Below are positions 8,769-46,873 of a stretch of 64,000 bases of DNA, in pieces. Numbering within the stretch: position 1 is the first letter of the stretch; the number at the start of each line of letters is the position of its first letter. Position numbers and translations under genes: made by a program. The DNA comes from Candidatus Eiseniibacteriota bacterium (GTDB lineage Bacteria; Joyebacterota; Joyebacteria; Joyebacterales; Joyebacteraceae). A model generated the notes under the pieces. That model worked only from the letters and a program-made list of their open reading frames with translations. It ran no database searches and had not been told where the DNA came from. Where the stretch lies: NCBI GenBank assembly GCA_043819135.1, contig JBDRFG010000106.1:809-64808 (forward strand), written 5' to 3'.

Positions 8769-9881
<1,113 letters not shown>

Positions 9882-9922
9882 CGGGAGCCGGGCGAAGAGG
9901 CCAATGACGGAGACGGACGCCC

Positions 9923-10564
9923 GTGAGCGGCACGATCACCGAGATCAGAAGGACCGGCGAAGACACGCTCCGTCTGACGGTGTTCGTTGACGGAGTGGAG
10001 GCCTTCACGGTCTCCGAGGAGGTAGCTCGCGAACTCGGCCTGTCGGTGGGCGACGAACTGGCTCAGCCTGCAGCCGTTTGTACTGCGGCCGACGACGATC
10101 GCGCGAAGGCGAGGGAAGCCGCGCTCAGGCTCCTGGCCGTGCGTGCCAGAAGCGAGGGTGAACTCTCCGACCGCCTGAGACGCAAGGGCTTCAGCGAGCA
10201 GCTGACGGCCGCGGTGGTGTTCTCACTGGCCGAGGTCGGACTGGTCGACGACGAGGCGTTCGCGCGCGCGTGGACCGACGAGCGAGTGAGACTTCGCCCC
10301 GTCGGGCCGCGGCGACTTGCTCAGGAACTTCTGTCGAAGAAGGTCAACAGAGACCTGGCCGCCCGCGTGGTGGACGAGACCTTCCGGGAGCACTCGGAGC
10401 TGGAGCTGGCCCGCAAGGCGGTTGAGAAGAAAGCGCGAGTGTCAGGGGGCGTGGACGGTGGCAAGCGCCGCGCCCGTCTGCACTCGTTTCTGATAAGAAG
10501 GGGCTTCTCTTTTGAGGTGGTGTCCGCCGTCATCAAGGAGATAGAGGGAGAATCAGATGCCTGA
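9923..10564 (+). CDS. recX: regulatory protein RecX
   Basis: It lies immediately downstream of recA and has the repeated RecX helical modules (ELSDRLRRKGFSEQL..., LAQELLSKKVNRDL...). Confidence 0.75.
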   Translation: MSGTITEIRRTGEDTLRLTVFVDGVEAFTVSEEVARELGLSVGDELAQPAAVCTAADDDRAKAREAALRLLAVRARSEGELSDRLRRKGFSEQLTAAVVFSLAEVGLVDDEAFARAWTDERVRLRPVGPRRLAQELLSKKVNRDLAARVVDETFREHSELELARKAVEKKARVSGGVDGGKRRARLHSFLIRRGFSFEVVSAVIKEIEGESDA

Positions 10565-13244
10565 CGGCATGTCGTCCAACGAGATCAGGCGCCGGTTCAT
10601 CGAGTACTTCATCGAGCGCGGACACGAGAAGGTAGAGAGCGCTCCGCTGATACCGCGCGACGACCCGACGCTTCTCTTCACGTCGGCGGGCATGGTGCCG
10701 TTCAAGCCGTACTACATGAACGATAACCCTCCGATCACACGCGCGGTTTCCGTTCAGAGATGCCTGCGCCTCTCCGACCTTGACGAGGTGGGGAAGACTC
10801 CCTATCACGCGACCTTCTTCGAGATGCTCGGCAACTTCTCCTTCGGCGATTACTTCAAAGAAGAGACGATCGAGTGGGGATGGGAGTTCCTGACGGAGGT
10901 CATCGGGTTGCCGAAGGACCGCCTGTGGGTCACCGTCCACAAGGACGACGCTGCGGCGGCCGACATCTGGCGGACGCGGATCAAGTTTCCCTCCGAGCGC
11001 CTTGTGGCGTTGGGTGACAAGCACAACTTCTGGGGGCCGGCGGGCGACTCGGGCCCCTGCGGGCCGTGCTCTGAGATCCATCTGGACATGGGCGCCGAGG
11101 CCGGTTGCGGAAACCCCGGCTGCGACCCCGGCTGCGAGTGCGACCGCTTCTTCGAGATATGGAACCTGGTCTTCCCGCAGTTCCTGCAGCGTGCGGATGG
11201 CACGCGCGAGCCGCTCAAGCGCCCCGGCATCGATACGGGCATGGGGTTCGAGCGTCTTGCCAGCGTCGTGCAGGGAGCCGCGAGCATTCACGAGACCGAC
11301 ACGGGCCTGCCCGTCCTGGCGGCAGTGAGGGACGACGCCGAGGCGGCAAGCGGAACGCGGCCACCCGAGGGGCGGCCCGGCCCGGATCTGGTCGTCATAG
11401 CCGATCACGCCCGGGCGGCGACGTTCGCGATCGCCGAGAACATCCTGCCGTCGAACGAGGCGCAGGGCTACATCGTGCGCCGCCTGATCCGCAGGGCGGT
11501 GCACCGCGGTCTCTCGCTCGGCATCGTCGAACCGTTCCTCTACCGCATCAGCGGAGTGATCGTTGACGCGCTCGGAGAGGCGCATCCGCATCTCGTCCAG
11601 AAGCGCGAGCATGTCGCGCTCGTGGTCAAGTCGGAGGAGGAGCGTTTTCACGAGACCCTGACGCGGGGGAGCGCCGTGTTCGAGGAGATGCTCGAGTCCC
11701 TCGCCGGGAGCGACTCGAAGGTCGTTCCCGGGGACGTCGCCTTCAGCCTCTATGACACATACGGATTCCCGCTCGATATCGCTGAAGAGATGGCCGCCGA
11801 GCGCGGCATGATCGTGGACCGCGAGGCCTTCCAGGCAGCAATGGCGGAGCAGAAGGACCGCGGCAGGCGGGCCTCGACGTTCGGCGACCCCGGCGATGCA
11901 GGCACGTGGGAAGGGAAGCGCGCCGCCACCGCGTTCGTAGGCTACGAACTCCCGTGTGCGTGCGGGGAGGGAGCGGAGTGCGAAACGGTCGATACGCTGC
12001 TGTCCGGCCCCGTAGCCACCGAGGTGGCGGAAGTCAGGCGCGCGCGTGAGAACACGCTCGAGTTCACGCTGACCGAGAGTCCTTTCTACGCGGAGTCTGG
12101 CGGACAGGTGGCCGACTCCGGCACGCTGACCGTGGGCGGCGCCACCGTGGAGGTGGTGAACGTGCTGACGCGCGACGAGCGCTACGTGCACGTCGGGACC
12201 GATCCCGGCGGGGCGATCACTCCCGGAGCGCCCGCGGAGGCGCGCGTCGACGTCGCGAGAAGACGCCTCATCGAGAAGAACCACACGGCCACTCATCTGC
12301 TCCAGGCCGCTCTGAGGAACGCGCTGGGTGACCACGTCCACCAGTCCGGGTCGTGGGTGGGTCCGGACAGGTTGCGATTCGACTTCACACACTTCTCCGA
12401 GCTGTCGGCCAGGGAGATCGCGGCTATCGAGGACAGGGTGAACGCCTGGGTCCGCGCCGACGTCCCTGTCGCGCCCGAGAGCATGGGGCTCGAAGCGGCG
12501 CTCGAGCGCGGTGCGACGGCGCTCTTCGGCGAGAAGTACGGCTCCGAGGTCCGGGTCGTCTGTGTCGGTTGCGGCGAGTCGAAGGTGAGCCTGGAACTCT
12601 GCGGCGGCACTCATGTCGAGAGAACGGGCGAGATCGGATCCTTCGCGGTGGTCAGCGAATCGGGCGTGGCCGCCGGCGTCAGGAGGATCGAGGCCGTGAC
12701 GGGCAGAACGGCGGTGGCGCGAGCCCGCCACAACGCGGAGCTTGTCAGAGAGCTCACCGATGTCCTCAAGGTCGCCCCGGGCGAAGCGCTCGACAGGGCG
12801 AGGGAACTCACCGCCGAAACATCGAAGCTCCGAAAGGAAGTCGAGCGGGAGCGGCAGAAGATCGCGGGCGGGTCAGTGGACTCGCTGCTCGACGGTGCAC
12901 GCGAGGTAGCGGGTATCCGACTTCTGGCCGCGCGAACCGACGCGCCGGACATCAAGACCCTCCGCGGCCAGGCCGACCGACTGCGCGACAGGCTGGGTAG
13001 CGGGGCGGGACTTCTGGCGGCCGTTACGGAGGGCGGTGTCATTGTCATAGCGGTCGTCACGGAAGATCTGGTCAAGAAGGGTACCCTCAGCGCGGGAGAC
13101 CTCGTCCACGAGGTGGCGGGAGTTCTGGGGGGACGCGGTGGAGGCAAACCGCAACTTGCCCAGGGCGGCGGCGGAGACCCGGCCAGGCTTGAGCAGGCGC
13201 TCGAGGAATTCTATGAGGTGGCCCGCCGTGCCATCGAGAGCTGA
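10557..13244 (+). CDS. alaS: alanine--tRNA ligase
   Basis: MSSNEIRRRFIEYFIERGHEKVESAPLIP...FTSAGMVPFKPYY is the class II aaRS catalytic domain. It is followed by the editing domain (HTATHLLQ...C.GTH) and a C-terminal DHHA1 domain. Confidence 0.95.
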   Translation: MPDGMSSNEIRRRFIEYFIERGHEKVESAPLIPRDDPTLLFTSAGMVPFKPYYMNDNPPITRAVSVQRCLRLSDLDEVGKTPYHATFFEMLGNFSFGDYFKEETIEWGWEFLTEVIGLPKDRLWVTVHKDDAAAADIWRTRIKFPSERLVALGDKHNFWGPAGDSGPCGPCSEIHLDMGAEAGCGNPGCDPGCECDRFFEIWNLVFPQFLQRADGTREPLKRPGIDTGMGFERLASVVQGAASIHETDTGLPVLAAVRDDAEAASGTRPPEGRPGPDLVVIADHARAATFAIAENILPSNEAQGYIVRRLIRRAVHRGLSLGIVEPFLYRISGVIVDALGEAHPHLVQKREHVALVVKSEEERFHETLTRGSAVFEEMLESLAGSDSKVVPGDVAFSLYDTYGFPLDIAEEMAAERGMIVDREAFQAAMAEQKDRGRRASTFGDPGDAGTWEGKRAATAFVGYELPCACGEGAECETVDTLLSGPVATEVAEVRRARENTLEFTLTESPFYAESGGQVADSGTLTVGGATVEVVNVLTRDERYVHVGTDPGGAITPGAPAEARVDVARRRLIEKNHTATHLLQAALRNALGDHVHQSGSWVGPDRLRFDFTHFSELSAREIAAIEDRVNAWVRADVPVAPESMGLEAALERGATALFGEKYGSEVRVVCVGCGESKVSLELCGGTHVERTGEIGSFAVVSESGVAAGVRRIEAVTGRTAVARARHNAELVRELTDVLKVAPGEALDRARELTAETSKLRKEVERERQKIAGGSVDSLLDGAREVAGIRLLAARTDAPDIKTLRGQADRLRDRLGSGAGLLAAVTEGGVIVIAVVTEDLVKKGTLSAGDLVHEVAGVLGGRGGGKPQLAQGGGGDPARLEQALEEFYEVARRAIES

Positions 13245-13288
13245 GGGTTCGTTGCCCGGATGCTGACGCGCGTGACCGAGGGGAGCGC

Positions 13289-14053
13289 ATGAGGGAGACT
13301 GGAAGAACGCTCGCCTGGCTGGAGGGTGAGATACGCGCCCGGGGCGCCCTGTACCTGGTGCTCCTGGACCCCGACAGGTTCGATCCCTCCGAGAACGCGA
13401 AGCTCGCGGCGCTCGCGGTGGGGGCCGGAGCCGACGCGCTCCTGGTCGGAGGCAGCCTGTCCCTGAAGGGAGGCTGCGACAGAACAGTGCGCGCGATCAA
13501 GGGGGCGGTCGACGTTCCTGTCATCCTCTTCCCGGGCGACATCGGCTTCGTTACCGAAGAGGCCGATGCGATACTGTTCCTGTCGCTGGTGAGCGGGCGC
13601 AACCCGCAGTTCCTCATAGGGGAGCACGTGCGCGCCGCACCCGTTCTGAAAGAGGCGGGGCTCGAGCCGATACCGACGGCCTACATGCTGGTCGAGGGCG
13701 GAGCCACGACATCCGTCGAGTTCATGAGCTCGACGAAGCCCATCCCTCGGGACAAGCCCGACATAGCCATGGCGCACGCGCTTGCGGCTCAGTATCTGGG
13801 CATGAGGCTGGCCTTCTTCGACGCGGGTAGCGGCGCAGCACAGCACGTTCCCGAGGAAATGGTCCGCATGGTCTCCCGCTACGTCGACCTGCCGGTCATG
13901 GTCGGGGGGGGGATCCGCGAGCCTGCCGCGGCTGGTCGGCTGGTGGAAGCCGGCGCCAGCGTCATCATCACCGGTGACGTAGTTGAGAAGACGGGAGACG
14001 CGGGTCTCATGAAGGCGCTCGCCGAGGCCGTGCACGAGCCGCGCAGTTCGTGA
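13289..14053 (+). CDS. pcrB: geranylgeranylglyceryl/heptaprenylglyceryl phosphate synthase (PcrB/GGGPS family TIM barrel)
   Basis: The protein is about 250 aa. LVLLDPDRF...ADALLVGGS...FFDAGSG...MVGGGIRE align along the whole length with B. subtilis PcrB (FKLDPNK...IIGGS...YLEYSG...YGGGI). Confidence 0.8.
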   Translation: MRETGRTLAWLEGEIRARGALYLVLLDPDRFDPSENAKLAALAVGAGADALLVGGSLSLKGGCDRTVRAIKGAVDVPVILFPGDIGFVTEEADAILFLSLVSGRNPQFLIGEHVRAAPVLKEAGLEPIPTAYMLVEGGATTSVEFMSSTKPIPRDKPDIAMAHALAAQYLGMRLAFFDAGSGAAQHVPEEMVRMVSRYVDLPVMVGGGIREPAAAGRLVEAGASVIITGDVVEKTGDAGLMKALAEAVHEPRSS

Positions 14054-14166
14054 GCGCCCAGGCGCGCGACGCGGCGCCCCGGAGTCGCTGAGGAGGCCGC
14101 CCGGTTCTGCGGCGGAGATCGTGCGGGGGCGTCGAGCTTCCGCTTCACGGAACACTCGAAAGGCAG

Positions 14167-15240
14167 GTGGTCCGCATCAAGGCTCTCGTCCTTTCAGGCG
14201 GCAAGGGTACGCGGCTCAGACCGATCACGCACACGAGCGCGAAGCAACTGGTCCCCATCGCGAACAAACCCATCCTGTTCTACGGACTGGAGGCGATCCG
14301 TAACGCGGGGATCGTCGACGTCGGGATCGTCGTGGGCGAGACGGCGAAGGAGATAGAGGCCGCCGTCGGCGACGGCTCCTCCTTCGGCCTCAAGGTCACA
14401 TACATTCTTCAGAATGAGCCCCTCGGTCTGGCCCACGCGGTCAAGATATCGAGCGACTACATCGGCAAGGAACCGTTCGTGATGTACCTCGGCGACAATC
14501 TTATCATGGGCGGCATCACCGATTTCGTCTCCGAGTTCCAGAGGCACAAGCCCAACGCACAGATCCTCCTGGCCCGCGTAGACAACCCGAGCGAGTTCGG
14601 CGTGGCCGAGTTGTCGGGCGGGAGGGTGGAACGGCTCCAGGAGAAACCCGAGAACCCACGCTCGAATCTCGCTCTTGTAGGCGTCTACATGTTCGACGCG
14701 GAGATCTTCGGAGCGGTGAACGACATCAAGCCGTCGGCGCGGAACGAACTCGAGATCACTGACGCCATCCAGAGGCTGATAGACACGGGCAGGGAGGTCC
14801 GGGCGCACGAGGTCACGGGCTGGTGGAAGGACACGGGGAAGCTGGAGGACATACTCGAGGCCAACCGGATGATACTCGAGACCATCAAGCGGGACATCGC
14901 GGGCAGCGTGGACAGCGGCTCGCGCATAGACGGGAACGTGGTGGTCGCGGAAGGGGCTGAGATCCACGGCAGCGTCCTTCGCGGTCCGCTGGTCATAGGA
15001 CGAGGCTGCAGGATCGTCAAGTCGTACATCGGACCGTTCACCTCCATCTATCACGACGTGACGGTCCAGAATTCCGAGATCGAGCACAGCATCATCCTCG
15101 AGAACTCGAGCATCTCCAATCTCGGCAGCAGGATGGAGAGGAGCCTTATCGGCAAGGACGTGGAGATCACGAAGAGCGGCACGATGCCGAAGGCCTTCCG
15201 CTTCATGGTGGGAGACGCCAGCAGGATCGAGGTGCCCTAG
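14167..15240 (+). CDS. rmlA: glucose-1-phosphate thymidylyltransferase, long form with C-terminal left-handed beta-helix
   Basis: LVLSGGKGTRLRPITHTSAKQLVPIANKPILFYGLE is the nucleotidyltransferase signature. The protein is about 357 aa, with an LbH C-terminal extension as in the actinobacterial/archaeal long RmlA. Confidence 0.8.
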   Translation: MVRIKALVLSGGKGTRLRPITHTSAKQLVPIANKPILFYGLEAIRNAGIVDVGIVVGETAKEIEAAVGDGSSFGLKVTYILQNEPLGLAHAVKISSDYIGKEPFVMYLGDNLIMGGITDFVSEFQRHKPNAQILLARVDNPSEFGVAELSGGRVERLQEKPENPRSNLALVGVYMFDAEIFGAVNDIKPSARNELEITDAIQRLIDTGREVRAHEVTGWWKDTGKLEDILEANRMILETIKRDIAGSVDSGSRIDGNVVVAEGAEIHGSVLRGPLVIGRGCRIVKSYIGPFTSIYHDVTVQNSEIEHSIILENSSISNLGSRMERSLIGKDVEITKSGTMPKAFRFMVGDASRIEVP

Positions 15241-16115
15241 TGGGAAGCGACACCCCGGGAACCGGACGCGGGACGGAGAGGGTCCTGGTCACGGGCTCAG
15301 CCGGCATGCTGGGGACGGAACTGGTTCCGCTGCTCAGGGGCGAGTTCGAGGTTACCGCGGCGGACCTAGACGACTTCGACCTGCGGGACGGTGCGGCGAC
15401 CGACGCGTTCGTGTCGCGGGTGGCGCCAGATCTCATCATCAACTGCGCCGCCTATACTGATGTCGACGGCGCCGAAGCCGATCCCGCCGCCGCGTTCGAC
15501 GTCAACGCCGGCGGTGCGGGGAACGTCGCGGCGGCCGGTGAGCGGGCCGGAGCGCGAGTCGTCCAGATCAGCACCGACTACGTCTTCGACGGCACGGGCA
15601 GGAGGCCCTACAGGGAAGAGGACGAACCGAGCCCGCTGGGAGCGTACGGACGCTCGAAGCACGAGGGCGAGCGCCGGGTCATCGAGTGCTCTTCCGACCC
15701 TCTGATAGTCCGTACGGCGTGGCTCTACGGACACGCGGGGCCGAACTTCGTCGAGAAGGTGCTGTCTCTGGCGACCTCCGGACGGGCGCTGAGGGTGGTC
15801 AACGACCAGGTCGGGGCTCCGACCAACGTCCGCGACCTCGCCTGGGCGATCCGGGAACTGATTGCGGCGGAGGCCACCGGTGTGGTAAACGCTACGAATG
15901 CGGGTTCGTGCTCGTGGTTCGACTTCGCTCGCGAGATACTGGACCGCGCCGGACACACCGGCGTCCCGATAGAGCCCGTGACCAGCGACGAGTTCCCGAG
16001 GCCCGCGCCTCGGCCGGGCTATTCGGTCCTGTCTCTCGCGAAGCTCGTGTCGCTCACTGGCAGGGAACCGAGGAACTGGCGGGACGCTCTGGCCGAGTAC
16101 ATCGCCGAAAGGTAG
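15240..16115 (+). CDS. rmlD: dTDP-4-dehydrorhamnose reductase
   Basis: The Rossmann motif VLVTGSAGMLG, the motif NCAAYTDVDGAE and the catalytic YGRSK are present. The GTG start overlaps the rmlA TAG stop by 1 nt. Confidence 0.8.
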   Translation: MGSDTPGTGRGTERVLVTGSAGMLGTELVPLLRGEFEVTAADLDDFDLRDGAATDAFVSRVAPDLIINCAAYTDVDGAEADPAAAFDVNAGGAGNVAAAGERAGARVVQISTDYVFDGTGRRPYREEDEPSPLGAYGRSKHEGERRVIECSSDPLIVRTAWLYGHAGPNFVEKVLSLATSGRALRVVNDQVGAPTNVRDLAWAIRELIAAEATGVVNATNAGSCSWFDFAREILDRAGHTGVPIEPVTSDEFPRPAPRPGYSVLSLAKLVSLTGREPRNWRDALAEYIAER

Positions 16116-16120
16116 GCTCA

Positions 16121-16714
16121 ATGGAACGACATGCTGAGACGGGCGTCGACCGCGCGAGGGCGGTCTTCACGGAGTCCTCGAGGATGCACGCGCTCGCGGC
16201 CGAGTCTCTGTCCGAGGCGGTTGCCGAGGCGGCCGCTGCGGTCACCGAAGCTCTCAGGGCCGGCAACAAGGTGCTTCTCTGCGGCAACGGGGGGAGCGCC
16301 GCAGACGCGCAGCATGTTGCGGCCGAGCTGGCGGGTAGACTGCGCCTGGAGCGTGGCGGCCTGCCTGCGATCGCGCTCACGGTGAACACCTCGGTCATGA
16401 CCGCTCTGGCGAACGACTACGGATACGACATGGTATTCGCAAGACAGGTGGAGGCACTGGGGTGCAGGGGAGACGTGCTGGTCGGCATCTCGACGAGCGG
16501 CAGGTCCCCCAATGTCGTAAGAGCTCTCGAGGCGGCGCGTGCCGGCGGTGTTGTCACGGTGGGGCTCGTCGGGTGCGACGCGGGGGAGATGGGGGGGCTG
16601 TGCGACTACCTGATCGCAGTCCCCACCGAGGACACACAGCGCATTCAGGAGATACACATCGCGGCCGGGCACGCGATATGCGAGATCGTGGAGTCCGCGC
16701 TGTTCGGTCAGTAG
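16121..16714 (+). CDS. gmhA: phosphoheptose (sedoheptulose-7-phosphate) isomerase, SIS domain
   Basis: LLCGNGGSAADAQHVAAELAGR...GDVLVGISTSGRSPNV matches GmhA. The ATG at 16121 lies 5 nt after the rmlD stop. The longer track ORF starting at 15686 overlaps rmlD and is rejected. Confidence 0.8.
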   Translation: MERHAETGVDRARAVFTESSRMHALAAESLSEAVAEAAAAVTEALRAGNKVLLCGNGGSAADAQHVAAELAGRLRLERGGLPAIALTVNTSVMTALANDYGYDMVFARQVEALGCRGDVLVGISTSGRSPNVVRALEAARAGGVVTVGLVGCDAGEMGGLCDYLIAVPTEDTQRIQEIHIAAGHAICEIVESALFGQ

Positions 16715-16736: not shown

Positions 16737-17357
16737 GTGGATCCCATAATCATCGGCATCGGAGGGGGAACCGGGTCGGGGAAAACGACCGTCGCCAAGC
16801 AGGTGCGGAAGCATTTCCCGGAGGAGAGCGTCGTCATCGTCCATCACGACTCCTACTACGTGGACCGCAGCGACCTTTCGCCCGCGAGCCGCGAGAACAT
16901 CAACTACGACCATCCGGATTCGTTCGACAATGAGCTCCTTCTGGCGCAGCTGAACGACCTGAGAGGCGGCAAGGCCGTCGATAAGCCGATATACGACTTC
17001 GAGACGCACACCAGACGGAAGGAGACCATCACCGTCCGTCCGGCTCGGATAATACTGCTCGAGGGCATTCTGGTGCTGGCCGAGGACGTACTCAGGGAGA
17101 CCATGGACATCAAGCTCTACGTCGACACGGATGCCGACGAGCGCTTCATTCGCCGATTGAGGCGCGACATCTCGGACCGAGGCAGAACAGTCGACCAGGT
17201 CATCGAACAGTACCTAAAGACCGTCCGGCCGATGCACCTGCAGTTCGTTGAGACCAGCAAACGGTACGCGGACGTGATAATCCCCGAGGGTGGGCTGAAC
17301 GTCGTGGCGGTCGACCTGATCGTTACAAAAATACGCGACATTCTCTCAGCTCACTAG
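16737..17357 (+). CDS. udk: uridine kinase
   Basis: The P-loop is IGIGGGTGSGKTT. The udk-type HHDSYY and DFETHTR motifs are present. Confidence 0.85.
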   Translation: MDPIIIGIGGGTGSGKTTVAKQVRKHFPEESVVIVHHDSYYVDRSDLSPASRENINYDHPDSFDNELLLAQLNDLRGGKAVDKPIYDFETHTRRKETITVRPARIILLEGILVLAEDVLRETMDIKLYVDTDADERFIRRLRRDISDRGRTVDQVIEQYLKTVRPMHLQFVETSKRYADVIIPEGGLNVVAVDLIVTKIRDILSAH

Positions 17358-17400
17358 CGGCAGCGGTCGTCGCCGTGGACGCACAGAAAGGGACACGCTT

Positions 17401-18291
17401 ATGATGGTGCGACACCTCTTCAGGATCCTCCGGCCGGACCAGTGGACGAAGAACCTCGTGCTCTTTGCGGGGCTTATGTTCGCGGGTGGTATGGGGACGC
17501 GGACGCTCGTCCTTCACGCGACCGCGGGCTTCCTTGCGTTCTGCGCCCTGTCCGGCGCCACCTACATATTCAACGACCTGATGGACGTACGTCGGGACCG
17601 TGAGCACCCAGTCAAGAAGCTGCGACCGCTGGCGTCGGGCGACCTGCCGATCGGAGTCGCTTCGGTCGCCGCGGTCGTTCTGGCGGTGCTCGCGCTCGTG
17701 TGGGCCTACGGTCTCCATCCGAACTTCGGGCTGGTTGCCACCGGCTACCTGGCTCTCAACGTCCTCTACAGCGTCGCCCTCAGGAAGATGGTCGTTCTGG
17801 ACGTCATGGCGATCGCGATCGGCTTCGTGCTCAGAGCGGTCGGCAGCGTGGAGGTCCTCAAGGGGCCTGCGCCCGACACCGAGCTTTCGCCCTGGCTTCT
17901 GGTCTGCACGTTCTTCCTTGCACTCTTTCTGGGGCTGGGGAAGAGGAGGCACGAGGTGCTGGTGCTCGGCGCCGACGGCGGGAAGCACCGTCCCGTGCTG
18001 AAGCACTACCCGCCGCCACTCATAGACGCCCTCTTCGGCGTCGTGACAGCGTCGACGGTCGTCTCGTACGCCATCTACACCATCTGGCCGGGAACCGTCG
18101 AGAAGGTGGGAGGCACGGGGCTCGTCTACACGATACCTTTCGTGGTGTACGGCGTTTTTCGATACCTCTACCTGATGTTCGCGGCGGGCGAGGGAGGGCA
18201 GCCGTCGCGCTCTCTCCTGTCTGACCTTCCACTCGCGCTGAACATCGTCCTGTGGGTCCTCGTGGTGGCGTTCGTCATCTACGCGAGGTGA
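17401..18291 (+). CDS. UbiA-family polyprenyl-phosphate transferase (DPPR-synthase-like or DGGGP-synthase-like)
   Basis: The protein has 8-9 TM helices and the first Asp-rich motif NDLMDVRRDREHPVKKLRPLASG. That motif is very close to the M. tuberculosis Rv3806c family (NDxxDxxADREHPxKRxRPxAxG). Confidence 0.65.
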   Translation: MMVRHLFRILRPDQWTKNLVLFAGLMFAGGMGTRTLVLHATAGFLAFCALSGATYIFNDLMDVRRDREHPVKKLRPLASGDLPIGVASVAAVVLAVLALVWAYGLHPNFGLVATGYLALNVLYSVALRKMVVLDVMAIAIGFVLRAVGSVEVLKGPAPDTELSPWLLVCTFFLALFLGLGKRRHEVLVLGADGGKHRPVLKHYPPPLIDALFGVVTASTVVSYAIYTIWPGTVEKVGGTGLVYTIPFVVYGVFRYLYLMFAAGEGGQPSRSLLSDLPLALNIVLWVLVVAFVIYAR

Positions 18292-18391
18292 GAACTGGGA
18301 ATCCGCGCCCGAGCGCCGCGTTCGCGCTCCGTCGGCGGGTCTCGCGTGGAAGCTGCCGTTCCGTCGACGGCAGCGTTTTCTTGGGAGGGCA

Positions 18392-19291
18392 GTGCAACTG
18401 CACCGCGTCAGCGTAGAAGCGTTCGCCAAGATCAACCTCGGATTGGCCGTGACGGGCGTGAGACCGGACGGCTATCACGACATCGAGACGGTGTACCAGA
18501 GCGTGTCTCTCTGCGACACGGTTGTTCTCGGTCCTCTGGAAGGTCCTCATCGAGTGTCTCTGACCGTCCACGGATCGTCTCTCCCCGACGGCCCGGACAA
18601 TCTGGCGTGGAGGGCCGCCGAAGCCGCCCGCGCCACCTTCGGGTGCGGGGGGGTCTCGATCGAGCTGACGAAGCGGATCCCGGTCGCAGCAGGTTTGGGT
18701 GGCGGGAGCGCCGACGCTGCAGCTGTCCTGGTGGGCATGGACGCCCTGTTCGACCTCAGAGCACCGGCGGACGCCCTGTTGGACCTGGCGGCCTCCATCG
18801 GCTCCGACGTGCCCTTCATGCTGTCCGGGGGCACGGCGCTGGGGACCGGAAGGGGAGAGAAGCTCGAGCGGCTGCCCGCCCTCGTCGGCGTCTGGTTTGT
18901 CCTCGCCGCCCCGCGCTTCGGGGTTTCGGCGGGCGAGGCCTACGGAATCCCGAGAATCGGGTTGACAGAGGCCGCTAGCTTCACTAGAGTAAACTGTTTA
19001 GCTGTCCGGGAAGGCGACATTCCGACGCTTGCCAAGGGGCTTCGGAACGACCTGGAAGCTGGTGTTGCGTCTGCCTATCCGGAGGTTGCGCGCGTCAAGG
19101 AGGCGCTGCTGGAACAGGGCGCCCTCGCCGCCGTGATGTCCGGAAGCGGACCGACGGTCGTCGGACTCGTTCCTGACGAAGCGACCGGGAAGGACATGGC
19201 GTCGCGCCTGGCGAGGTGTGACGTGGACATACATGTCGTAGCGCCGATCGACGTAGGCCAGAGCGTGACTCGGGTAGACGACGAGCCCTGA
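18392..19291 (+). CDS. ispE: 4-(cytidine 5'-diphospho)-2-C-methyl-D-erythritol kinase
   Basis: The GHMP kinase motifs KINLGLAV and [15 protein letters not shown] are present. The start codon is GTG. Confidence 0.85.
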
Positions 19292-19365: not shown

Positions 19366-19683
19366 ATGGAGATCACCGAGGTCAGGCTGACTTTGCGCCA
19401 CGAGGAGCGCCTGAAGGCGTTTGTCAGCATCACATTCGACAACGCGTTCGTCGTCAGGGGCCTCAAGGTCATTGACGGCAACACGGGTCTTTTCGTCGCG
19501 ATGCCCAGCAGGCGGCGTAAGGACGGGGAGTTCAGAGACATCGCTCACCCGATCAACAACGCGACGCGGCAGATGATAGAGGACGCCGTTCTCGCCGAGT
19601 TTGAGCGTCAGATCGCAATCGGCGGGGACGAGCCTCAAACGGCGGAGCAAGAGCTGGTGCTCGCCGATGAGTTTTGCGACTAG
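19366..19683 (+). CDS. spoVG: septation protein SpoVG
   Basis: [10 protein letters not shown]...[22 protein letters not shown]...FVAMPSRR is highly conserved SpoVG. GGAGGG lies upstream of the start. Confidence 0.9.
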
Positions 19684-19695
19684 AAGCATGGTCGC

Positions 19696-19769
19696 TGGGG
19701 CGTCGTCAAGTGGCAAGACACGGGACTTTGGATCCCGCCTCGGAGGTTCGAATCCTCCCGCCCCAGCCA
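19696..19769 (+). tRNA. tRNA-Gln (anticodon TTG), CCA encoded
   Basis: Hand-folded cloverleaf. Acceptor stem TGGGGCG/CGCCCCA, discriminator G and an encoded CCA. D-stem GTC/GAC. Anticodon stem CGGGA/TCCCG with loop CTTTGGA. T-arm GGAGG-TTCGAAT-CCTCC. The ends resemble E. coli tRNA-Gln (TGGGG...CCCCAGCCA). Confidence 0.85.
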
Positions 19770-19836: not shown

Positions 19837-20772
19837 GTGATGCCTAACGAACTGGGGCTTTTCAGCGGCAACGCCAATCGCGCACTCGCTGAGGAGATCG
19901 CTGGGTACCTGGGCATGAGACTGGGTGAGGCCGCGGTCGGAAGATTCCGCGACGGGGAAATAAGCGTCAGCATCTCCGAGAACGTCCGCGGGATGGACGC
20001 GTTCGTCATACAGCCAACGGCGCCTCCGGCCGAGAGTCTCTTCGAGCTCTTGATAATGATGGACGCCCTGAGGCGGGCGTCGGCGCGGCGGATCACTGCG
20101 GTCGTGCCCTACTTCGGCTACGCCAGGCAGGACCGGAAGGACAGGCCGCGCGTGGCCATCACCGCGAAGCTCGTCGCCAACCTGCTGACGGTCGCGGGGG
20201 CAGACAGGATCCTGACCATGGACCTTCACGCTCCGCAGATCCAGGGGTTCTTCGACATCCCGATGGACCACATCTACGCGGCGCCGGTGCTTCTCCGCTA
20301 CTTCGACGAGCACGCGGGCAGCGACCTCGTTGTCATGTCGCCGGACATCGGGAGCATCAAGATGGGCAGAGCGTTCGCGAAGCGGCTGGGCGCATCGCTC
20401 GGCTTCGTTGACAAGAGACGCCCGAGACCCGACGCGACCGAGGTCATGAACGTCGTCGGCGAGGTCGAGGGTAAGCACGTCATCATGATAGATGACATCA
20501 TCAGCACCGGCAGTTCAATGATCGAGGGCGCGAACGCCGTGATGAGGATGGGAGCCGCGAAGGTCACGGCCGGCGCCACTCATGCGCTGTTCGCGGAAGG
20601 CGCCGTGGAGACGCTCTGCGACTCGGTGATCGAGGAGATCGTGGTCACGAACACGCTCAGCAACGAGCGGGCGGGCTTGGACAAGATCCGAACCCTGTCG
20701 GTCGCGGAACTCCTGGGAGAGGCGATAGACAGAATACACGGTGAGAAGTCGGTAAGCTCGCTCTTCGTCTGA
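19837..20772 (+). CDS. prs: ribose-phosphate pyrophosphokinase
   Basis: The sequence has RDGEISVSISENVRG..., the PRPP-binding loop HVIMIDDIISTGSSM and the GATH.LF motif. Confidence 0.9.
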   Translation: MMPNELGLFSGNANRALAEEIAGYLGMRLGEAAVGRFRDGEISVSISENVRGMDAFVIQPTAPPAESLFELLIMMDALRRASARRITAVVPYFGYARQDRKDRPRVAITAKLVANLLTVAGADRILTMDLHAPQIQGFFDIPMDHIYAAPVLLRYFDEHAGSDLVVMSPDIGSIKMGRAFAKRLGASLGFVDKRRPRPDATEVMNVVGEVEGKHVIMIDDIISTGSSMIEGANAVMRMGAAKVTAGATHALFAEGAVETLCDSVIEEIVVTNTLSNERAGLDKIRTLSVAELLGEAIDRIHGEKSVSSLFV

Positions 20773-29269: not shown

Positions 29270-30520
29270 CTAGCGGTACATGGCCTTGATGCTGCCCCAG
29301 CTCTGCGCCTCGACCGGCGAACCGGTCCAGTCCTCGAGCCAGGTGTCGTCAAGCATGACGCCGGCGCCACCAGCGGCACCCGGACCGCAACCGTTGTCGG
29401 TCGAGTAGAACGTGATCTTGTACCGGAACGCCGTTCCCGGCAGCAGCGGGCTGATGTCGTAACCGACGATTCCGCTCGTGCCCCATCCGTCGCACTGGCC
29501 GAAGTCGCCCCAGAACGCCGCGGTCATGGTCCAGCTGCCGCCACCGTCCACGCTGACTTCCTCTGTCCAGTAGTCGTTGTCGACCGTCGGCACCTCGGCG
29601 TGAATAAGCATGCGAAGCGTGCACGTGACGCTTCCGACGATGCTCACGGCGGGGGAGATCAACGAGTTGTTGAGATTCGGAGGCGTCAGGGACGTGTCGG
29701 CGGCGTCGCCGCACCACCAGCTGTGCGGGTCGCTGTAGGCGATACACGCACGATCGATGATGTGCCACCAGTCGCCGGCCGAAGACGGGATGCCGGAGAC
29801 GCAGAGGCCGCCGCTCTCGCCGTCATCGTAGAAGTACACGTAGCCGCCGAAGTAGTCGAACACCTTCACGTTGTCGCACATGAAACCGCCACCGACCGAC
29901 AGATAGTGGCCGTCCTGATCCGACCAGCCGCCGTCCGACAGGAAGCGGAAGCGGGCGTTGAGCGGATTGTCGTACGCATCCAGGATGAAGCCGTAGAGAC
30001 CGATGTCGGTCCACGGCTGCTTGCCGTCGTAGCCCTTGTTCAGGTTCACGTAGACGCCGAGGCTCTCGGCCTGAACGTACGTGTAGTCGTAGCCGGCCTC
30101 CGAGTCGTGACGGAACGCGTAGGTCAGGATCGGGTACGTGGCACCGGTCAGGTCCACCGTCGGGATGACCAGCCTGTCATCCCAGCTGTTGCCGTAACCA
30201 CCGTCCGCGTCATAGTCGAAATTACCGCACCACCAGGACTGTCCGCGCCCTCTGCTCGCGGGCGGCTCGTAGGCCATGTAGGTGTCCAGATGGAAGTGGG
30301 GAACCGAGGTGGCGGTGTTGTCTTCATGCGTCCAACCGGCGACGCCGCCCTCCATGTCATCGAAATACAGGATGACGGGGCTGCGCGACGCGTACGCGTC
30401 GATCTGATCGGTGTAGCTGGCAACGGTCTTCCGCGCGGTCGCGGTCGTGGCAAGTGCAAACACCGCGGCGACGACCATCATCACACAAAGCGTTCTCTTA
30501 AGCATCGTTTCGAACTCCAT
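29270..30520 (-). CDS. secreted hypothetical protein with internally duplicated Trp/Tyr/Asp/Gly-rich domain
   Basis: This is the only substantial minus-strand gene. It has a signal peptide (MLKRTLCVMMVVAAVFALATTATA; an alternative start is at 30505). Two roughly 150-aa repeats each begin S-W-W-C-G (SWWCGNFDYDADGG... and SWWCGDAADTS...). I see no catalytic motif. Confidence 0.6.
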   Translation of the reverse strand: MEFETMLKRTLCVMMVVAAVFALATTATARKTVASYTDQIDAYASRSPVILYFDDMEGGVAGWTHEDNTATSVPHFHLDTYMAYEPPASRGRGQSWWCGNFDYDADGGYGNSWDDRLVIPTVDLTGATYPILTYAFRHDSEAGYDYTYVQAESLGVYVNLNKGYDGKQPWTDIGLYGFILDAYDNPLNARFRFLSDGGWSDQDGHYLSVGGGFMCDNVKVFDYFGGYVYFYDDGESGGLCVSGIPSSAGDWWHIIDRACIAYSDPHSWWCGDAADTSLTPPNLNNSLISPAVSIVGSVTCTLRMLIHAEVPTVDNDYWTEEVSVDGGGSWTMTAAFWGDFGQCDGWGTSGIVGYDISPLLPGTAFRYKITFYSTDNGCGPGAAGGAGVMLDDTWLEDWTGSPVEAQSWGSIKAMYR

Positions 30521-31049: not shown

Positions 31050-32462
31050 ATGACCGACAAGAGAAGACTGAGCGCGATACCGTCCGTCGATGCAGTGCTG
31101 GCTCATCTCGAGGAGAGAAGCCTCAGCACAGTACAGCCTACGCCCATACTGACCCGTCTCGTCAGGGAGATACTCGAACGCGAGCGCGCGGCAATGCTCG
31201 CCGGCGAGGGGCACCACGGGGACACCCCCGAGGACACACGCGCCGGTATCCTCAGGAAGGTGGAGGCGGAGGTCCTGCGCTCGCCTGCCCGCGGTCTCGT
31301 GCCTGTCATCAACGCCACCGGCGTGGTCGTTCACACCAATTTGGGAAGAGCGCCGCTCTCTGAAGAGGCCGTGGCGGCGGTTGCGGAGATTGCGCGAGGG
31401 TACTCGAATCTGGAGTACGACCTGATCAGGGGCACTCGCGGGAAGAGGGACTACCTTGTCAGGGACGCGCTGTGCGAGCTGACCGGCGCCGAGGACGCTC
31501 TCGTGGTGAACAACAACGCGGCGGCCGTCCTCCTGGTTCTGAACACTCTCGCCGCCGGTCGCGAGGTCGTCGTATCGCGAAGCGAACTGATAGAGATCGG
31601 CGGCTCGTTCAGGCTTCCGGACGTGTTCGAGCGCAGCGGCTCGCGCATGGTCGAGGTCGGAACGACGAACCGCACACACCTGTCGGATTTCCGGGACGCC
31701 ATCAGGAGCAGCACAGGGGCGCTCATGTCAGCGCACTGGAGCAACTACTCGATCTCGGGATTCGTCGAGCGCGTTTCGTTGAGCAAACTCGCCTCACTGG
31801 GAGAGCGCTTCGGCATTCCCGTTATCCATGACCTTGGAAGCGGCATCCTCATCGATCCCGCGAAGCTCGGGCTTTCCGGAGAGATGACGGTGGCTGAGAG
31901 CGTCTCCGCCGGAGCGACCGTCTCGACCTTCAGCGGCGACAAGATCCTCGGAGGCCCGCAGGCCGGCATCGCGGTGGGCACGGAGAGCGCCATCTCGCGC
32001 ATGAGGGCGAATCCCCTGATGCGAGCGCTTCGCCCGGGCAAGCTGACTCTGGCCGCCCTGTCGGCGACGCTCGCAAGCTACCTTCGCGGCGACGCAGAGA
32101 CGTCGGTCCCCGTGTTGTCAACGATCCTGGCGCCTCTCGATTCGCTTGCCGGAAGGGCCGAGCGAATGGCCAAGTCGCTGTCGTTGGCGCTGGGCGAGGG
32201 GGCGCGGGTATCGGCGCGTGAACTGGAAGGGCGCGTGGGCGGAGGCGCCGCTCCGGAGATAGTCATACCCAGCAGCGGGATCGAGATAGAGCCGCGCGGG
32301 AGCGTCACCGCGGGATCGGTTACGGCCGCGATGCTCGCGGCGTCACCGGCCGTCGTCGCGCGCACACAGGACGACCGCATAATCGTTGACTTGAGAACCG
32401 TCCCTGAAGACCAGGACAGCGCGGTCGTCGAGGCCCTGATCCACGCGTTCGGGGAGAGGTAA
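31050..32462 (+). CDS. selA: L-seryl-tRNA(Sec) selenium transferase
   Basis: INATGVVVHTNLGRAPL, the PLP region GGSFRLP and FSGDKILGGPQAGI with the PLP lysine are present. The protein is about 470 aa. Confidence 0.85.
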   Translation: MTDKRRLSAIPSVDAVLAHLEERSLSTVQPTPILTRLVREILERERAAMLAGEGHHGDTPEDTRAGILRKVEAEVLRSPARGLVPVINATGVVVHTNLGRAPLSEEAVAAVAEIARGYSNLEYDLIRGTRGKRDYLVRDALCELTGAEDALVVNNNAAAVLLVLNTLAAGREVVVSRSELIEIGGSFRLPDVFERSGSRMVEVGTTNRTHLSDFRDAIRSSTGALMSAHWSNYSISGFVERVSLSKLASLGERFGIPVIHDLGSGILIDPAKLGLSGEMTVAESVSAGATVSTFSGDKILGGPQAGIAVGTESAISRMRANPLMRALRPGKLTLAALSATLASYLRGDAETSVPVLSTILAPLDSLAGRAERMAKSLSLALGEGARVSARELEGRVGGGAAPEIVIPSSGIEIEPRGSVTAGSVTAAMLAASPAVVARTQDDRIIVDLRTVPEDQDSAVVEALIHAFGER

Positions 32463-38569: not shown

Positions 38570-38592
38570 CCTAGGTGACAGCTGAATACATG

Positions 38593-38706
38593 TTCCTTCG
38601 GGGCGGGGTGCAAATCCCCACCGGCGGTTACAGCCCGCGAGCGGAGCGATCCGCAGAGCCTGTGAAATCCAGGCGCCGACAGTGAGAGTCTGGATGGTAG
38701 AAGGAA
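38593..38706 (+). promoter_or_regulatory. FMN riboswitch (RFN element) aptamer
   Basis: The RFN consensus blocks are present: TTCGGGGCGGGGTGCAAATCCCCACCGGCGGTTA, AGCCCGCGAGC and GCCGACAGTGAGAGTCTGGATGGTAGAAGGAA. A P1 helix forms between ttccttc and gaaggaa. It sits upstream of ribD. Confidence 0.85.
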
Positions 38707-38743
38707 CCGGCACGGGAGGTGAGTCTCTTCCTGTGCCCCTTGA

Positions 38744-43644: not shown

Positions 43645-44577
43645 GTGCTGACTGCAAGCGTCGGCGTGATGGCATACAACGAAGAGCAGAACATCGACAA
43701 GCTGCTGGCCGCGCTCACCAGCCAGTCGCTCGAGCGCGTGGATATGCGTCAGATAGTCGTCGTGTCCAGCGGCTCGACCGATCGTACGGACGACATCGTT
43801 CGCGAATGGGCCGACAAAGACCAGCGCATCTCGCTCATCAGGCAGGAATCGCGCGAGGGCAAGGCGTCCGCCATCAACCTGTTCCTCGACGCGGCCGACG
43901 CCGACGTCTTCGTACTCGAGAGCGGCGACACCATCCCCGCGCCCGACTGCGTGGAGCACATGCTGGCGCCCTTCGAGAACCCGAATGTGGGGATGACCGG
44001 CGGCCGGCCGACACCCGTCGACGACCCGAACACCTTCATGGGATTCGTGGTGCACATGCTCTGGCGTCTTCACCATATGCTGGCGCTCAAGTCGCCGAAG
44101 CTCGGAGAGATGGTCGCGTTTCGGTCCTTCGTCCGTTCGATCCCGCCTGATACGGCCGTCGACGAAGCCAGCATAGAGGCCATCGTGATCGAACGCGGCA
44201 GTTCCCTGGCCTACGTACCTGAAGCGATCATCTACAACAAGGGCGCGTCGACGGTGGGCGATTTTCTCAAGCAGAGACGGCGCATATACGCCGGTCATAT
44301 CTGGCTGTCGAAGGTCCAGTCCTACGAGGTCTCGACGAAGAGGGTCGGAGGCATCGTCTCCGTCCTCCTGGAAGACCTCACGCCTTCGCCGCGCGCGCTG
44401 CTCTGGACCGCGGGCGGCGTCTTCCTCGAGTTCGTGGGGCGTCTTCTGGGCGCGATCGACTACTACGTGATGAAGAAGAACCCCTATACCTGGGAAGTGT
44501 CCCGAAGCACAAAGAGCCTCGATGCGCCCGCGACTCACGACACAGGAGCCAGGGGGGCGGGGGCGGTCGATGGTTGA
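43645..44577 (+). CDS. family 2 glycosyltransferase
   Basis: The N-terminal GT-A motif is VGVMAYNEEQNI..., with a DxD-like ESGD and R/K..YAG. This is the first gene of the glycan locus. Confidence 0.65.
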   Translation: MLTASVGVMAYNEEQNIDKLLAALTSQSLERVDMRQIVVVSSGSTDRTDDIVREWADKDQRISLIRQESREGKASAINLFLDAADADVFVLESGDTIPAPDCVEHMLAPFENPNVGMTGGRPTPVDDPNTFMGFVVHMLWRLHHMLALKSPKLGEMVAFRSFVRSIPPDTAVDEASIEAIVIERGSSLAYVPEAIIYNKGASTVGDFLKQRRRIYAGHIWLSKVQSYEVSTKRVGGIVSVLLEDLTPSPRALLWTAGGVFLEFVGRLLGAIDYYVMKKNPYTWEVSRSTKSLDAPATHDTGARGAGAVDG

Positions 44578-45655
44578 GATTCTCGCGAAGATCCCACTCT
44601 ACAAGTTGGCTCACGCGACCGGGTGGCCAAGGATCCTCCCGCTCAACCTCACGGTCAGCGTGACCTACCGCTGCAACTCCAGGTGCCTCACGTGCAACGT
44701 CTACACCAAGGACGCTCGTGAATTCACGGCCGAGGAGTTCGACCGAACGTTTCGCTCGCTCGGCCGCGCGCCTTACTGGTACACGATGAGCGGCGGGGAG
44801 CCGTTCCTTCGGTCCGACCTTCCCGACATCTGCGAGAGCGCGTACCGGAACGGACGCCCCGGGATCATCAACATTCCGACAAACGGGCTTCTCTCATCCC
44901 GGATCCCAGCGATGGTAGAGGACCTTGCCGGACGCTGCCCGAAGACGCAGGTCATCATCAACCTGTCGCTGGACGGCGTCGGAGAGGAGCACGACCGGAT
45001 CCGTGGCAGAGACGGGAGCTTCGAGAAGGCCGTCGAGACCTACCGGGGATTGAGGGCGCTCAAGTCACCGAACCTCACGGTGGGCGTTCACACGGTCATC
45101 TCGGTGCACAACGTCGAGCGAATACGATCGATCTACGAATACGTCGTCCGCGAACTCGCGCCGGACTCGTTCATCACGGAGATAGCCGAGGAGCGCGTGG
45201 AGCTCGAGACTCTCGGGGCGTCTATCACACCGACGGCAACCGCTTACGCCGTGGCCGTCGACTTTCTGATCGCCAGGATCAAGGAGCAGGACTACTCAGG
45301 CATCTCGCGCGTCACCCAGTCGTTCAGGGTGCGCTACTATGAGCTCGTGAAGCGATACCTCGCGTCGGGCGCGCAGCCGATCCCGTGCTATGCGGGAGTG
45401 GCGTCGGCCCAGATCGCGCCGGACGGACACGTGTGGTTCTGCTGCATCAAGGCCGAGTCGATGGGAAATCTGCGCGACGTCGACTTCGACTTCAGCCGCA
45501 TCTGGTACGGCGAGAAGGCGATGGAGGAACGGAAGAGGATCCGGGCGGGCGAGTGCGCGTGTCCGCTGGCGAACGCCGGCTACACGAACATGCTGATGCA
45601 CGTGCCGACCGTCACCGGCGTGGCCTTCGAGGTCGCATCGGGAGGGCGGCGGTAG
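44570..45655 (+). CDS. radical SAM protein with Cys-rich SPASM-like C-terminal region
   Basis: The CxxxCxxC triad CNSRCLTC is present with YTMSGGEPFL (the glycine-rich SAM motif). C-terminal cysteines are CYAGV...WFCC...GECACP. The start at 44570 overlaps the upstream GT2 gene by 8 nt. Confidence 0.7.
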   Translation: MVEILAKIPLYKLAHATGWPRILPLNLTVSVTYRCNSRCLTCNVYTKDAREFTAEEFDRTFRSLGRAPYWYTMSGGEPFLRSDLPDICESAYRNGRPGIINIPTNGLLSSRIPAMVEDLAGRCPKTQVIINLSLDGVGEEHDRIRGRDGSFEKAVETYRGLRALKSPNLTVGVHTVISVHNVERIRSIYEYVVRELAPDSFITEIAEERVELETLGASITPTATAYAVAVDFLIARIKEQDYSGISRVTQSFRVRYYELVKRYLASGAQPIPCYAGVASAQIAPDGHVWFCCIKAESMGNLRDVDFDFSRIWYGEKAMEERKRIRAGECACPLANAGYTNMLMHVPTVTGVAFEVASGGRR

Positions 45656-45712
45656 GAAGCCGGCCGCGGAGGCTCCGCGCCCGCTGCGAGAAAAGCGGTC
45701 GCTGGCATCTTT

Positions 45713-46870: not shown

Positions 46871-46873
46871 CGG

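Follow-up and report, generated by a model that had tools for sequence, protein, structure and literature searches.

A probable UbiA-fold polyprenyl-phosphate 5-phosphoribosyltransferase encoded among envelope-precursor genes of a Candidatus Eiseniibacteriota bacterium

A UbiA-fold protein of 296 amino acids, encoded at 17401-18291 (+) of a 64,000-nucleotide stretch of a Candidatus Eiseniibacteriota genome (assembly GCA_043819135.1, contig JBDRFG010000106.1, positions 809 to 64,808; hereafter the window), is probably an integral-membrane phosphoribosyltransferase that moves 5-phosphoribose from phosphoribosyl pyrophosphate (PRPP) onto a polyprenyl phosphate, supplying a sugar donor for an envelope glycan. 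Lipid-linked pentofuranose donors derived from PRPP were once deemed a mycobacterial speciality and are an anti-tuberculosis drug target, while recent work has revealed their wide use in glycan decoration. Candidatus Eisenbacteria is an added lineage with an enzyme of the polyprenyl phosphoribofuranose synthase (PPPRS) family, and the window protein adds to a known kind of enzyme, already named in public databases and widespread across phyla.

The gene begins with an ATG codon, and its codon-position G+C (0.66/0.42/0.85) follows the pattern of a genuine gene, in a window with a G+C content of 64-68% and nearly all genes on the + strand. An antisense open reading frame (ORF) that overlaps it (17323-18435) shows a shadow codon-position pattern. 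Among the long ORFs of the window, a regular-expression search found the UbiA-type motif [ND]DxxDxxxD in this protein only, the second match sitting in a frame of 52 codons. The motif lies in NDLMDVRRDREHPVKKLRPLASG, residues 58-80 of the protein (nt 17572-17640), which matches letter for letter the sequence quoted in the first-pass annotation, where a relationship to decaprenylphosphoryl-5-phosphoribose synthase (DPPRS) was originally suggested.

Family Assignment, Fold and Phylogeny

Pfam places the protein in the generic UbiA family alone (PF01040, 56.5 bits). With the NCBIfam model NF008977, named 'decaprenyl-phosphate phosphoribosyltransferase', it reaches 264.1 bits (cut-off 234), and by this profile the window protein is a member of NF008977, a sister subfamily to that of Rv3806c, the Mycobacterium tuberculosis enzyme. 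Rv3806c is also the best relative of solved structure (8j8j, E 1.4e-32, residues 4-291), the next being AfUbiA at E 7e-5. A profile built from 40 diverse relatives aligns with 8j8j over its full length at 228.5 bits, while it reaches 53 bits with AfUbiA and 44 bits with the digeranylgeranylglyceryl phosphate synthase (DGGGPS) of M. jannaschii (6m31), both over the N-terminal half only.

Structural modelling points the same way. An AlphaFold2 model computed from the 40-sequence alignment (pLDDT 96.1, pTM 0.91) was compared with the PDB by Foldseek, and the top match was 8j8j_A, with a template modelling (TM) score of 0.84 at 29% identity, followed by AfUbiA (TM 0.72), ApUbiA (0.69) and DGGGPS (0.67). 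In a neighbour-joining tree, the subfamily forms a star-like radiation distant from Rv3806c; the window protein clusters there with the homologues of loci L001, L003 and L006, and the clade linked to DprE1 and DprE2 nests within the same radiation. Profile scores and the modelled fold thus support a DPPRS-like protein, and neither a quinone, heme or chlorophyll UbiA enzyme nor a DGGGPS. Together with the conserved PRPP site and the DprE1/DprE2 neighbours of same-subfamily loci described below, they uphold the original suggestion.

Active Site and Proposed Reaction

The cryo-EM structure of Rv3806c reveals how PRPP and the lipid are held (PMC10994848). Mg2+ is bound by N73 and D77, the ribose by N73 and Q135, the 5-phosphate by K28, Y70 and Y157, and the pyrophosphate by R22, K87, R90, K143 and Y138, while decaprenyl phosphate contacts K28, Y157 and K191; the pocket is basic, as opposed to the acidic, two-Mg2+ pocket of true prenyltransferases (PMC10994848). 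The window protein was aligned with Rv3806c and 117 close orthologues, and a second set comprised 40 diverse representatives, 37-50% identical to it. Nine contact residues are identical: R22 corresponds to R11, K28 to K17, Y70 to Y55, N73 to N58, D77 to D62, K87 to K72, R90 to R75, Y138 to Y123 and K191 to K181. These nine are kept in essentially all of the 117 close orthologues and are invariant in the 40 diverse representatives, with the Mg2+ and ribose ligands N58 and D62 invariant in all 118 close and 40 diverse sequences. Three further contacts are replaced conservatively, namely Q135 by N120 (Q in 13 orthologues), K143 by R128 and Y157 by F142, the last of which also occurs in some mycobacteria (PMC10994848).

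Loop IV of the window protein reads KRRHE where Rv3806c has KRYAE, and R182, E185 and R197 are invariant. No second DxxxD (Asp-rich) motif is present in the window protein. The basic loop IV, the Rv3806c-type contacts and the missing second DxxxD form a PRPP-using signature that marks this protein off from UbiA enzymes that use prenyl diphosphates.

By analogy with Rv3806c and Citrobacter ORF15, Mg2+-PRPP would sit in an extramembrane cleft at the cytoplasmic face, with its pyrophosphate gripped by R11, K72, R75 and R128, its Mg2+ by N58 and D62, and its 5-phosphate by K17 and Y55. The polyprenyl phosphate, probably undecaprenyl phosphate rather than decaprenyl phosphate in this organism, would enter sideways into an intramembrane cavity, where K17 and K181 would hold its phosphate. 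This phosphate would then attack C1 opposite the pyrophosphate with inversion, giving a beta-linked polyprenyl-phosphate-5-phosphoribose and pyrophosphate. The product may next be dephosphorylated, perhaps epimerised, and flipped, after which a glycosyltransferase of the GT-C class would add the pentofuranose to an envelope glycan. These later steps, like the predicted final sugar and acceptor, are modelled on the pathways of Mycobacterium, Pseudomonas and Citrobacter.

Gene Neighbourhoods in Other Phyla

Gene context was analysed in 83 loci that carry UbiA homologues; all ORFs were clustered across the loci, and representatives were identified by Pfam, NCBIfam and PDB searches. In a Rokubacteria, a Methylomirabilota and a Deferrimicrobiaceae locus (L056, L058 and L077), the UbiA homologue, 48-50% identical to the window protein, is directly followed by a DprE1 homologue and a DprE2-like short-chain dehydrogenase/reductase (SDR), with a DegT aminotransferase upstream. 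The UbiA homologues of L056 and L077 score 259-270 bits on NF008977. The DprE1 homologue matches mycobacterial DprE1 (4aut/4fdn) at E 1e-77 and scores 390 bits on NF053785, under the cut-off of 500; the SDR scores 182 bits on NF053786, under the cut-off of 250. This order reproduces the layout of the mycobacterial decaprenyl-phosphate-arabinose pathway and so makes a phosphoribosyltransferase function of the subfamily credible. These loci are apparent operons of the polyprenyl-phosphate-arabinose type outside Actinobacteria.

A second recurrent partner is a DUF362 protein (PF04015) with a hydrophobic C-terminal tail, which follows the UbiA gene on the same strand in 13 loci that span at least 7 named phyla, with a median gap of 11 nt. 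DUF362 belongs to the clan of the LarA racemase/epimerase (PMC11770544), and one possible role of the protein is the enzymatic processing of the lipid-linked pentose; when it was compared with PDB sequences, nothing matched significantly. Apparent mentions of DUF362 in the study of TmAT refer to DUF3623. Other neighbours of the UbiA homologue are two or three GT4 glycosyltransferases (14-15 loci), a small four-helix protein resembling SMR/EamA transporters (9 loci), an SDR epimerase/dehydratase (8 loci) and DegT (7 loci). Many Acidobacteriota loci carry a conserved cassette composed of a treble-clef zinc-finger protein, a STAS-domain protein, the UbiA homologue, a low-complexity/coiled-coil protein and two or three GT4s.

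Ten large multi-pass proteins near UbiA homologues were also considered. Six looked by eye like unrelated transporters or enzymes (for example FeoB, an RND pump, CcmF and a Na/Pi carrier). Pfam scans of three others identified a PMT_2 GT-C protein (L017), a protein with a weak DUF2079 match (L067, with a clustered homologue in L055) and a protein that matched TPR repeats only. The neighbours listed (DUF362, GT4, SDR, SMR/EamA-like, DegT, PMT_2 and DUF2079-like) fit a pathway for an envelope-glycan donor.

Distribution and Public Annotation

The closest database proteins are metagenomic and 55-94% identical to the window protein, and those with a named source come from metagenome-assembled genomes (MAGs) of Candidatus Eisenbacteria. 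NCBI labels the Eisenbacteria orthologues 'decaprenyl-phosphate phosphoribosyltransferase', and the family assignment is therefore already public; JGI labels them '4-hydroxybenzoate polyprenyltransferase'. At E<=1e-30 the subfamily comprises 1,987 clusters at 50% identity. A genome scan, seeded with a narrower alignment (A2) instead of the diverse 40-sequence one (A1), found relatives in at least 563 GTDB species genomes from many mostly uncultivated phyla. The best 80 genomes include Eisenbacteria, Armatimonadota, Margulisiibacteriota, WOR-1, WOR-3, Latescibacterota, Zixibacteria, Ignavibacteria, Krumholzibacteria, Acidobacteriota, KSB3/Moduliflexus, Rokubacteria/Methylomirabilota, Gemmatimonadota, Planctomycetes, Omnitrophota, Anaerolineae and others. 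Given this breadth and the existing NCBI name, the view that such an enzyme would be non-trivial for this lineage was overstated.

Alternative Explanations

Several observations weigh against the proposed function. The name of the enzyme is applied to the window protein by extension from Rv3806c, and it is an extrapolation over about 29% identity, because Rv3806c falls in other NCBIfam models: its scores are 584 bits with NF008976, 420 with NF008978 and, below the cut-off, 153 with NF008977. Conversely, the window protein does not reach the cut-offs of NF008976 (134 bits against 474) or NF008978 (197 against 207), and it scores 164 bits against 351 on NF006088, the model of the form fused to a haloacid dehalogenase (HAD) domain. 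K208 of Rv3806c is not kept, its counterpart being P198, next to the invariant R197. No assayed member of the NF008977 subfamily was found in the literature cited here. Finally, neither DprE1 or DprE2, a PAP2 phosphatase, a HAD phosphoribose phosphatase nor an obvious dedicated GT-C adjoins the gene, and the same partners are missing from the 64-kb window and from +-10 kb around the gene in related Eisenbacteria loci. Within the window the best tblastn matches to DprE1 and DprE2 have E values of 0.28 and 0.54, and no PAP2 motif was found.

These points leave some room, on our estimate a small one, for a PRPP-dependent transferase of the same fold that uses another lipid phosphate or serves a pathway apart from GT-C glycosylation, for example by making a phosphoribosylated membrane lipid that is itself the end product, or a donor used by an enzyme outside the GT-C class. 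Such an enzyme would accord with a subfamily distinct from every assayed enzyme, with the lack of an adjoining phosphatase, epimerase, flippase or GT-C, and with the position of the gene among precursor-supply genes (rmlA, rmlD, gmhA-like, udk, ispE, prs) instead of in the polysaccharide cluster at 43.6-63.8 kb. Against it, K17 and K181, the predicted ligands of the lipid phosphate, agree with Rv3806c, as does the position of F142, and genes of the same subfamily elsewhere adjoin DprE1/DprE2, GT4s, SMR-like and GT-C-like proteins, which is the pattern of a glycan donor.

It is highly improbable that the protein is a conventional UbiA prenyltransferase of the aromatic, quinone, heme O or chlorophyll type, mislabelled by PGAP-style models, even though Pfam returns only the generic family and JGI names many orthologues accordingly. 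The models for heme O synthase (CtaB, 28 bits), chlorophyll synthase (ChlG, 23), 4-hydroxybenzoate prenyltransferase (UbiA, 19-22) and EboC (22) stand far below the phosphoribosyltransferase model; a second DxxxD is missing, and no variation is seen in the K/R cluster or in the 5-phosphate ligands that are specific to Rv3806c; and no quinone or heme genes lie near the UbiA gene.

Least probable of all is a DGGGPS-type enzyme, partner to the nearby geranylgeranylglyceryl phosphate synthase (GGGPS), that would add a second prenyl chain to the GGGPS/PcrB product and so provide a bacterium of the FCB (Fibrobacteres-Chlorobi-Bacteroidetes) superphylum with an archaeal-type diether lipid. In its favour, DGGGPS shares the UbiA fold, a GGGPS-family gene stands on the same strand 3.3 kb upstream, and co-localised homologues of GGGPS and DGGGPS have been reported from FCB-group bacteria (PMC7852524). 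Against it, the DGGGPS model NF009521 gives 21.2 bits against a cut-off of 296, the match to 6m31 is confined to the N-terminal half, the second Asp-rich motif, required for a second Mg2+ to bind the prenyl diphosphate, is missing, and GGGPS occurs within 10 kb of the UbiA homologue in just 5 of the 83 loci, being missing from the syntenic L003, whose orthologue is 66% identical, and from L005. This identity, raised as the alternative by the first-pass annotation, was rejected. The window contains no candidate for a glycerol-1-phosphate dehydrogenase or a DGGGPS.

Local Neighbourhood and the Link to prs

The putative polyprenyl-phosphate phosphoribosyltransferase gene stands in the order alaS - GGGPS/PcrB - rmlA_long - rmlD - SIS (GmhA-like) - udk - UbiA - ispE - spoVG - tRNA-Gln - prs - L25 - pth - H+-PPase - ychF, and a matching order recurs on related contigs (Table 1). 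Near the UbiA homologue, across the 83 loci, ispE was found in 27, rmlD upstream in 23-24, prs in 23, rmlA and SIS upstream in 17 each and udk in 6. The loci linked to ispE or prs are all labelled Eisenbacteria, Krumholzibacteria or Aegiribacteria or are unclassified.

The statement that the gene lies two genes upstream of prs, the source of PRPP, is right for protein genes, as ispE and spoVG stand between them together with the tRNA gene, and prs starts 1546 nt downstream. The functional link is weaker. The proximity is best explained by lineage-specific synteny, not by a functional operon, because it is confined to Eisenbacteria-like lineages, because a tRNA gene and a hairpin separate the units, and because ispE-(spoVG)-prs-ctc-pth is an old housekeeping block, found in many bacteria not known to have a DPPRS, such as B. 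subtilis; ispE and prs are adjacent in E. coli as well. The hairpin, terminator-like with a 9-bp stem (6 G-C pairs) and a T-rich tail, falls within the 100 nt that separate UbiA from ispE and weakly suggests that the UbiA gene closes the upstream unit; such hairpins are no more numerous in the region than expected from shuffles. Along rmlA-rmlD-SIS-udk-UbiA the gaps are -1, about 5, 22 and 43 nt, and with this tight spacing the upstream sugar-precursor genes are the likelier co-transcription partners, if any.

Polysaccharide Cluster and Other Features of the Window

The polysaccharide cluster comprises several GT2s, a GT1, a GT9, a radical SAM-SPASM protein, a DUF362 protein, a flippase-like LPG_synthase_TM protein, an SDR epimerase, two alkaline-phosphatase-family proteins, a Wzx-like flippase, a YfhO-like protein and a fusion of GT2 with a Bac_transf priming domain. 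The YfhO-like protein, a possible GT-C user of the UbiA-derived lipid-linked sugar, had been put forward as its consumer, and this proposal is weakened by the adjoining GT2, the likelier donor synthase. The best matches of this GT2, all far below cut-offs, are AglJ, PgfS, dolichyl-phosphate-hexose transferase and PpgS. The Wzx-like flippase, YfhO-like and GT2 genes are consecutive and look like a self-contained system for extracytoplasmic hexose glycosylation. Since the YfhO-like protein has a probable donor synthase of its own and a Wzx-like gene beside it, it is not a specific candidate for the consumer of polyprenyl-phosphate-ribose, though it may still be one.

Searched by tblastn for the cross-phylum partners, the window yielded just two matches, an SDR at 53% identity and a distantly related DUF362 at 34% over 128 aa, and no homologues of the SMR-like protein, GT4, DprE1 or DprE2. 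The SDR is a weak candidate for the epimerase partner. It lies in an unusual sub-cluster that also contains a DUF362 protein, the radical SAM-SPASM protein, a weak methyltransferase-like protein and the flippase-like protein.

Elsewhere in the window, an FMN riboswitch precedes ribD-ribBA-ribH-nusB, and the sole clear minus-strand gene of the central region encodes 416 aa without a Pfam or NCBIfam match. A selA gene is present, and the organism therefore probably uses selenocysteine.

Table 1. Positions of the UbiA gene, its neighbours, other window features and the related loci (L numbers)
Feature	Position	Strand	Remark
Putative polyprenyl-phosphate 5-phosphoribosyltransferase gene	17401..18291	+	UbiA fold, 296 aa; PPPRS/DPPRS family (EC 2.4.2.45 type), NF008977 subfamily
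First Asp-rich motif and cytoplasmic loop 1	17572..17640	+	N58 D59 D62 D66 ... K72 R75
Loop IV motif K181-R182-R183-H184-E185	17941..17955	+	replaces second DxxxD of true prenyltransferases
GGGPS/PcrB-family gene	13289-14053	+	NF003198, 291 bits; directly after alaS; context, not partner
rmlA_long	14167-15240	+	
rmlD	15240-16115	+	
SIS/GmhA-like isomerase	about 16121-16714	+	
udk	16737-17357	+	
Terminator-like hairpin	18352-18374	+	
ispE	18392-19291	+	
spoVG	19366-19683	+	
tRNA-Gln	19696-19769	+	anticodon TTG; between spoVG and prs
prs	19837-20772	+	starts 1546 nt downstream of the UbiA gene
Gene without Pfam or NCBIfam match	29270-30520	-	
selA	31050-32462	+	L-seryl-tRNA(Sec) selenium transferase
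FMN riboswitch	38590-38709	+	111.6 bits
Sub-cluster from radical SAM-SPASM to SDR	44522-49792	+	radical SAM-SPASM, DUF362, methyltransferase-like, LPG_synthase_TM/TIGR00374 flippase-like, SDR epimerase
Weak methyltransferase-like gene	46874-47728	+	
SDR epimerase/dehydratase	48812-49792	+	53% identical to the SDR beside the UbiA homologue in L025 (Schekmanbacteria MAG)
Wzx-like flippase, YfhO-like GT-C, GT2	57168-61590	+	flippase matches Polysacc_synt
YfhO-like GT-C	58307-60880	+	Pfam YfhO at C-terminus only
PgfS/AglJ/PpgS-like GT2	60877-61590	+	237 aa; 4-nt overlap with YfhO-like gene
UbiA-DprE1-DprE2	L056:10001-13159		Rokubacteria
UbiA-DprE1-DprE2	L058:5820-8859		Methylomirabilota
UbiA-DprE1-DprE2	L077:9971-12974		Deferrimicrobiaceae
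DUF362 after UbiA	L012:10822-11937		
DUF362 after UbiA	L015:10861-11940		
DUF362 after UbiA	L023:10880-11959		
DUF362 after UbiA	L050:10857-11936		
DUF362 after UbiA	L069:10871-11956		8 further loci
Acidobacteriota cassette	L032, L040, L060, L061, L066, L076, L080, L085: about 9100-15900		UbiA start near 10001

Comparison with Known Systems

Archaeal DGGGPS (6m31), AfUbiA and ApUbiA have the fold of the UbiA superfamily in common with the window protein, as well as the first NDxxDxxxD motif. Their donors, however, are prenyl diphosphates, handled by two Asp-rich motifs and two Mg2+, and similarity is low, at 14-20% identity and TM scores of 0.67-0.73. For the 'lipid divide', the comparison removes a tempting false positive, namely a UbiA gene that lies near a bacterial GGGPS and yet is not a DGGGPS. 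The study of Ubi-297 names DPPRS only as a separate group and has no bearing here (PMC9235831).

ORF15 of Citrobacter youngae and the PPPRS of Pseudomonas aeruginosa PA7 are polyprenyl phosphoribofuranose synthases of three-component pentofuranose glycosylation systems (PMC11127046), and the same reaction is predicted for the window enzyme. The motifs mutated in ORF15, N-D-D-D of loop II and R/E of loop IV (R366/E369), correspond to N58, D59, D62, D66, R182 and E185. In ORF15 the synthase is fused to a HAD phosphoribose phosphatase domain, and its gene neighbours encode a MATE flippase, a GT136 GT-C and an epimerase, whereas the window enzyme is a stand-alone protein of 296 aa in a housekeeping neighbourhood. 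The three-component clustering of PPPRS, MATE and GT136 (Kelly et al. 2024) is not seen: the gene and the polysaccharide cluster are 25 kb apart, and none of the genes next to it is of the MATE or GT136 type.

The closest characterised counterpart is Rv3806c, the UbiA protein of M. tuberculosis (8j8j/8j8k), with which the window protein shares the fold (TM 0.84), nine identical and three conservatively replaced contacts and a KRxxE loop IV. The two differ in sequence (about 29% identity), in NCBIfam model, at K208 and probably in the lipid, and the window gene has no adjoining equivalents of Rv3807c, DprE1 or DprE2.

The operons of L056, L058 and L077 belong to the same NF008977 subfamily and the same radiation of the neighbour-joining tree, and they differ from the window and other Eisenbacteria loci in having DprE1/DprE2 downstream and DegT upstream. 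Sister lineages thus pair the UbiA gene with DprE1/DprE2 or a DUF362 protein, while Eisenbacteria-type loci have no recognisable downstream partners within +-10 kb. A speculative and rather unlikely extension would be that, if an NF008977 PPPRS is conserved in Eisenbacteria and relatives among envelope-precursor and housekeeping genes without DprE1/DprE2, a constitutive envelope polymer bearing ribofuranose or another pentofuranose, made with a polyprenyl-phosphate-pentose donor, could be a core trait of these uncultivated phyla, and the DUF362 protein of sister lineages could be a new epimerase or processing enzyme for lipid-linked pentose. For the window enzyme itself, the comparison backs the database name: the residues that define the chemistry are invariant, and in a few phyla the gene is still coupled to epimerases of the DprE1/DprE2 type.

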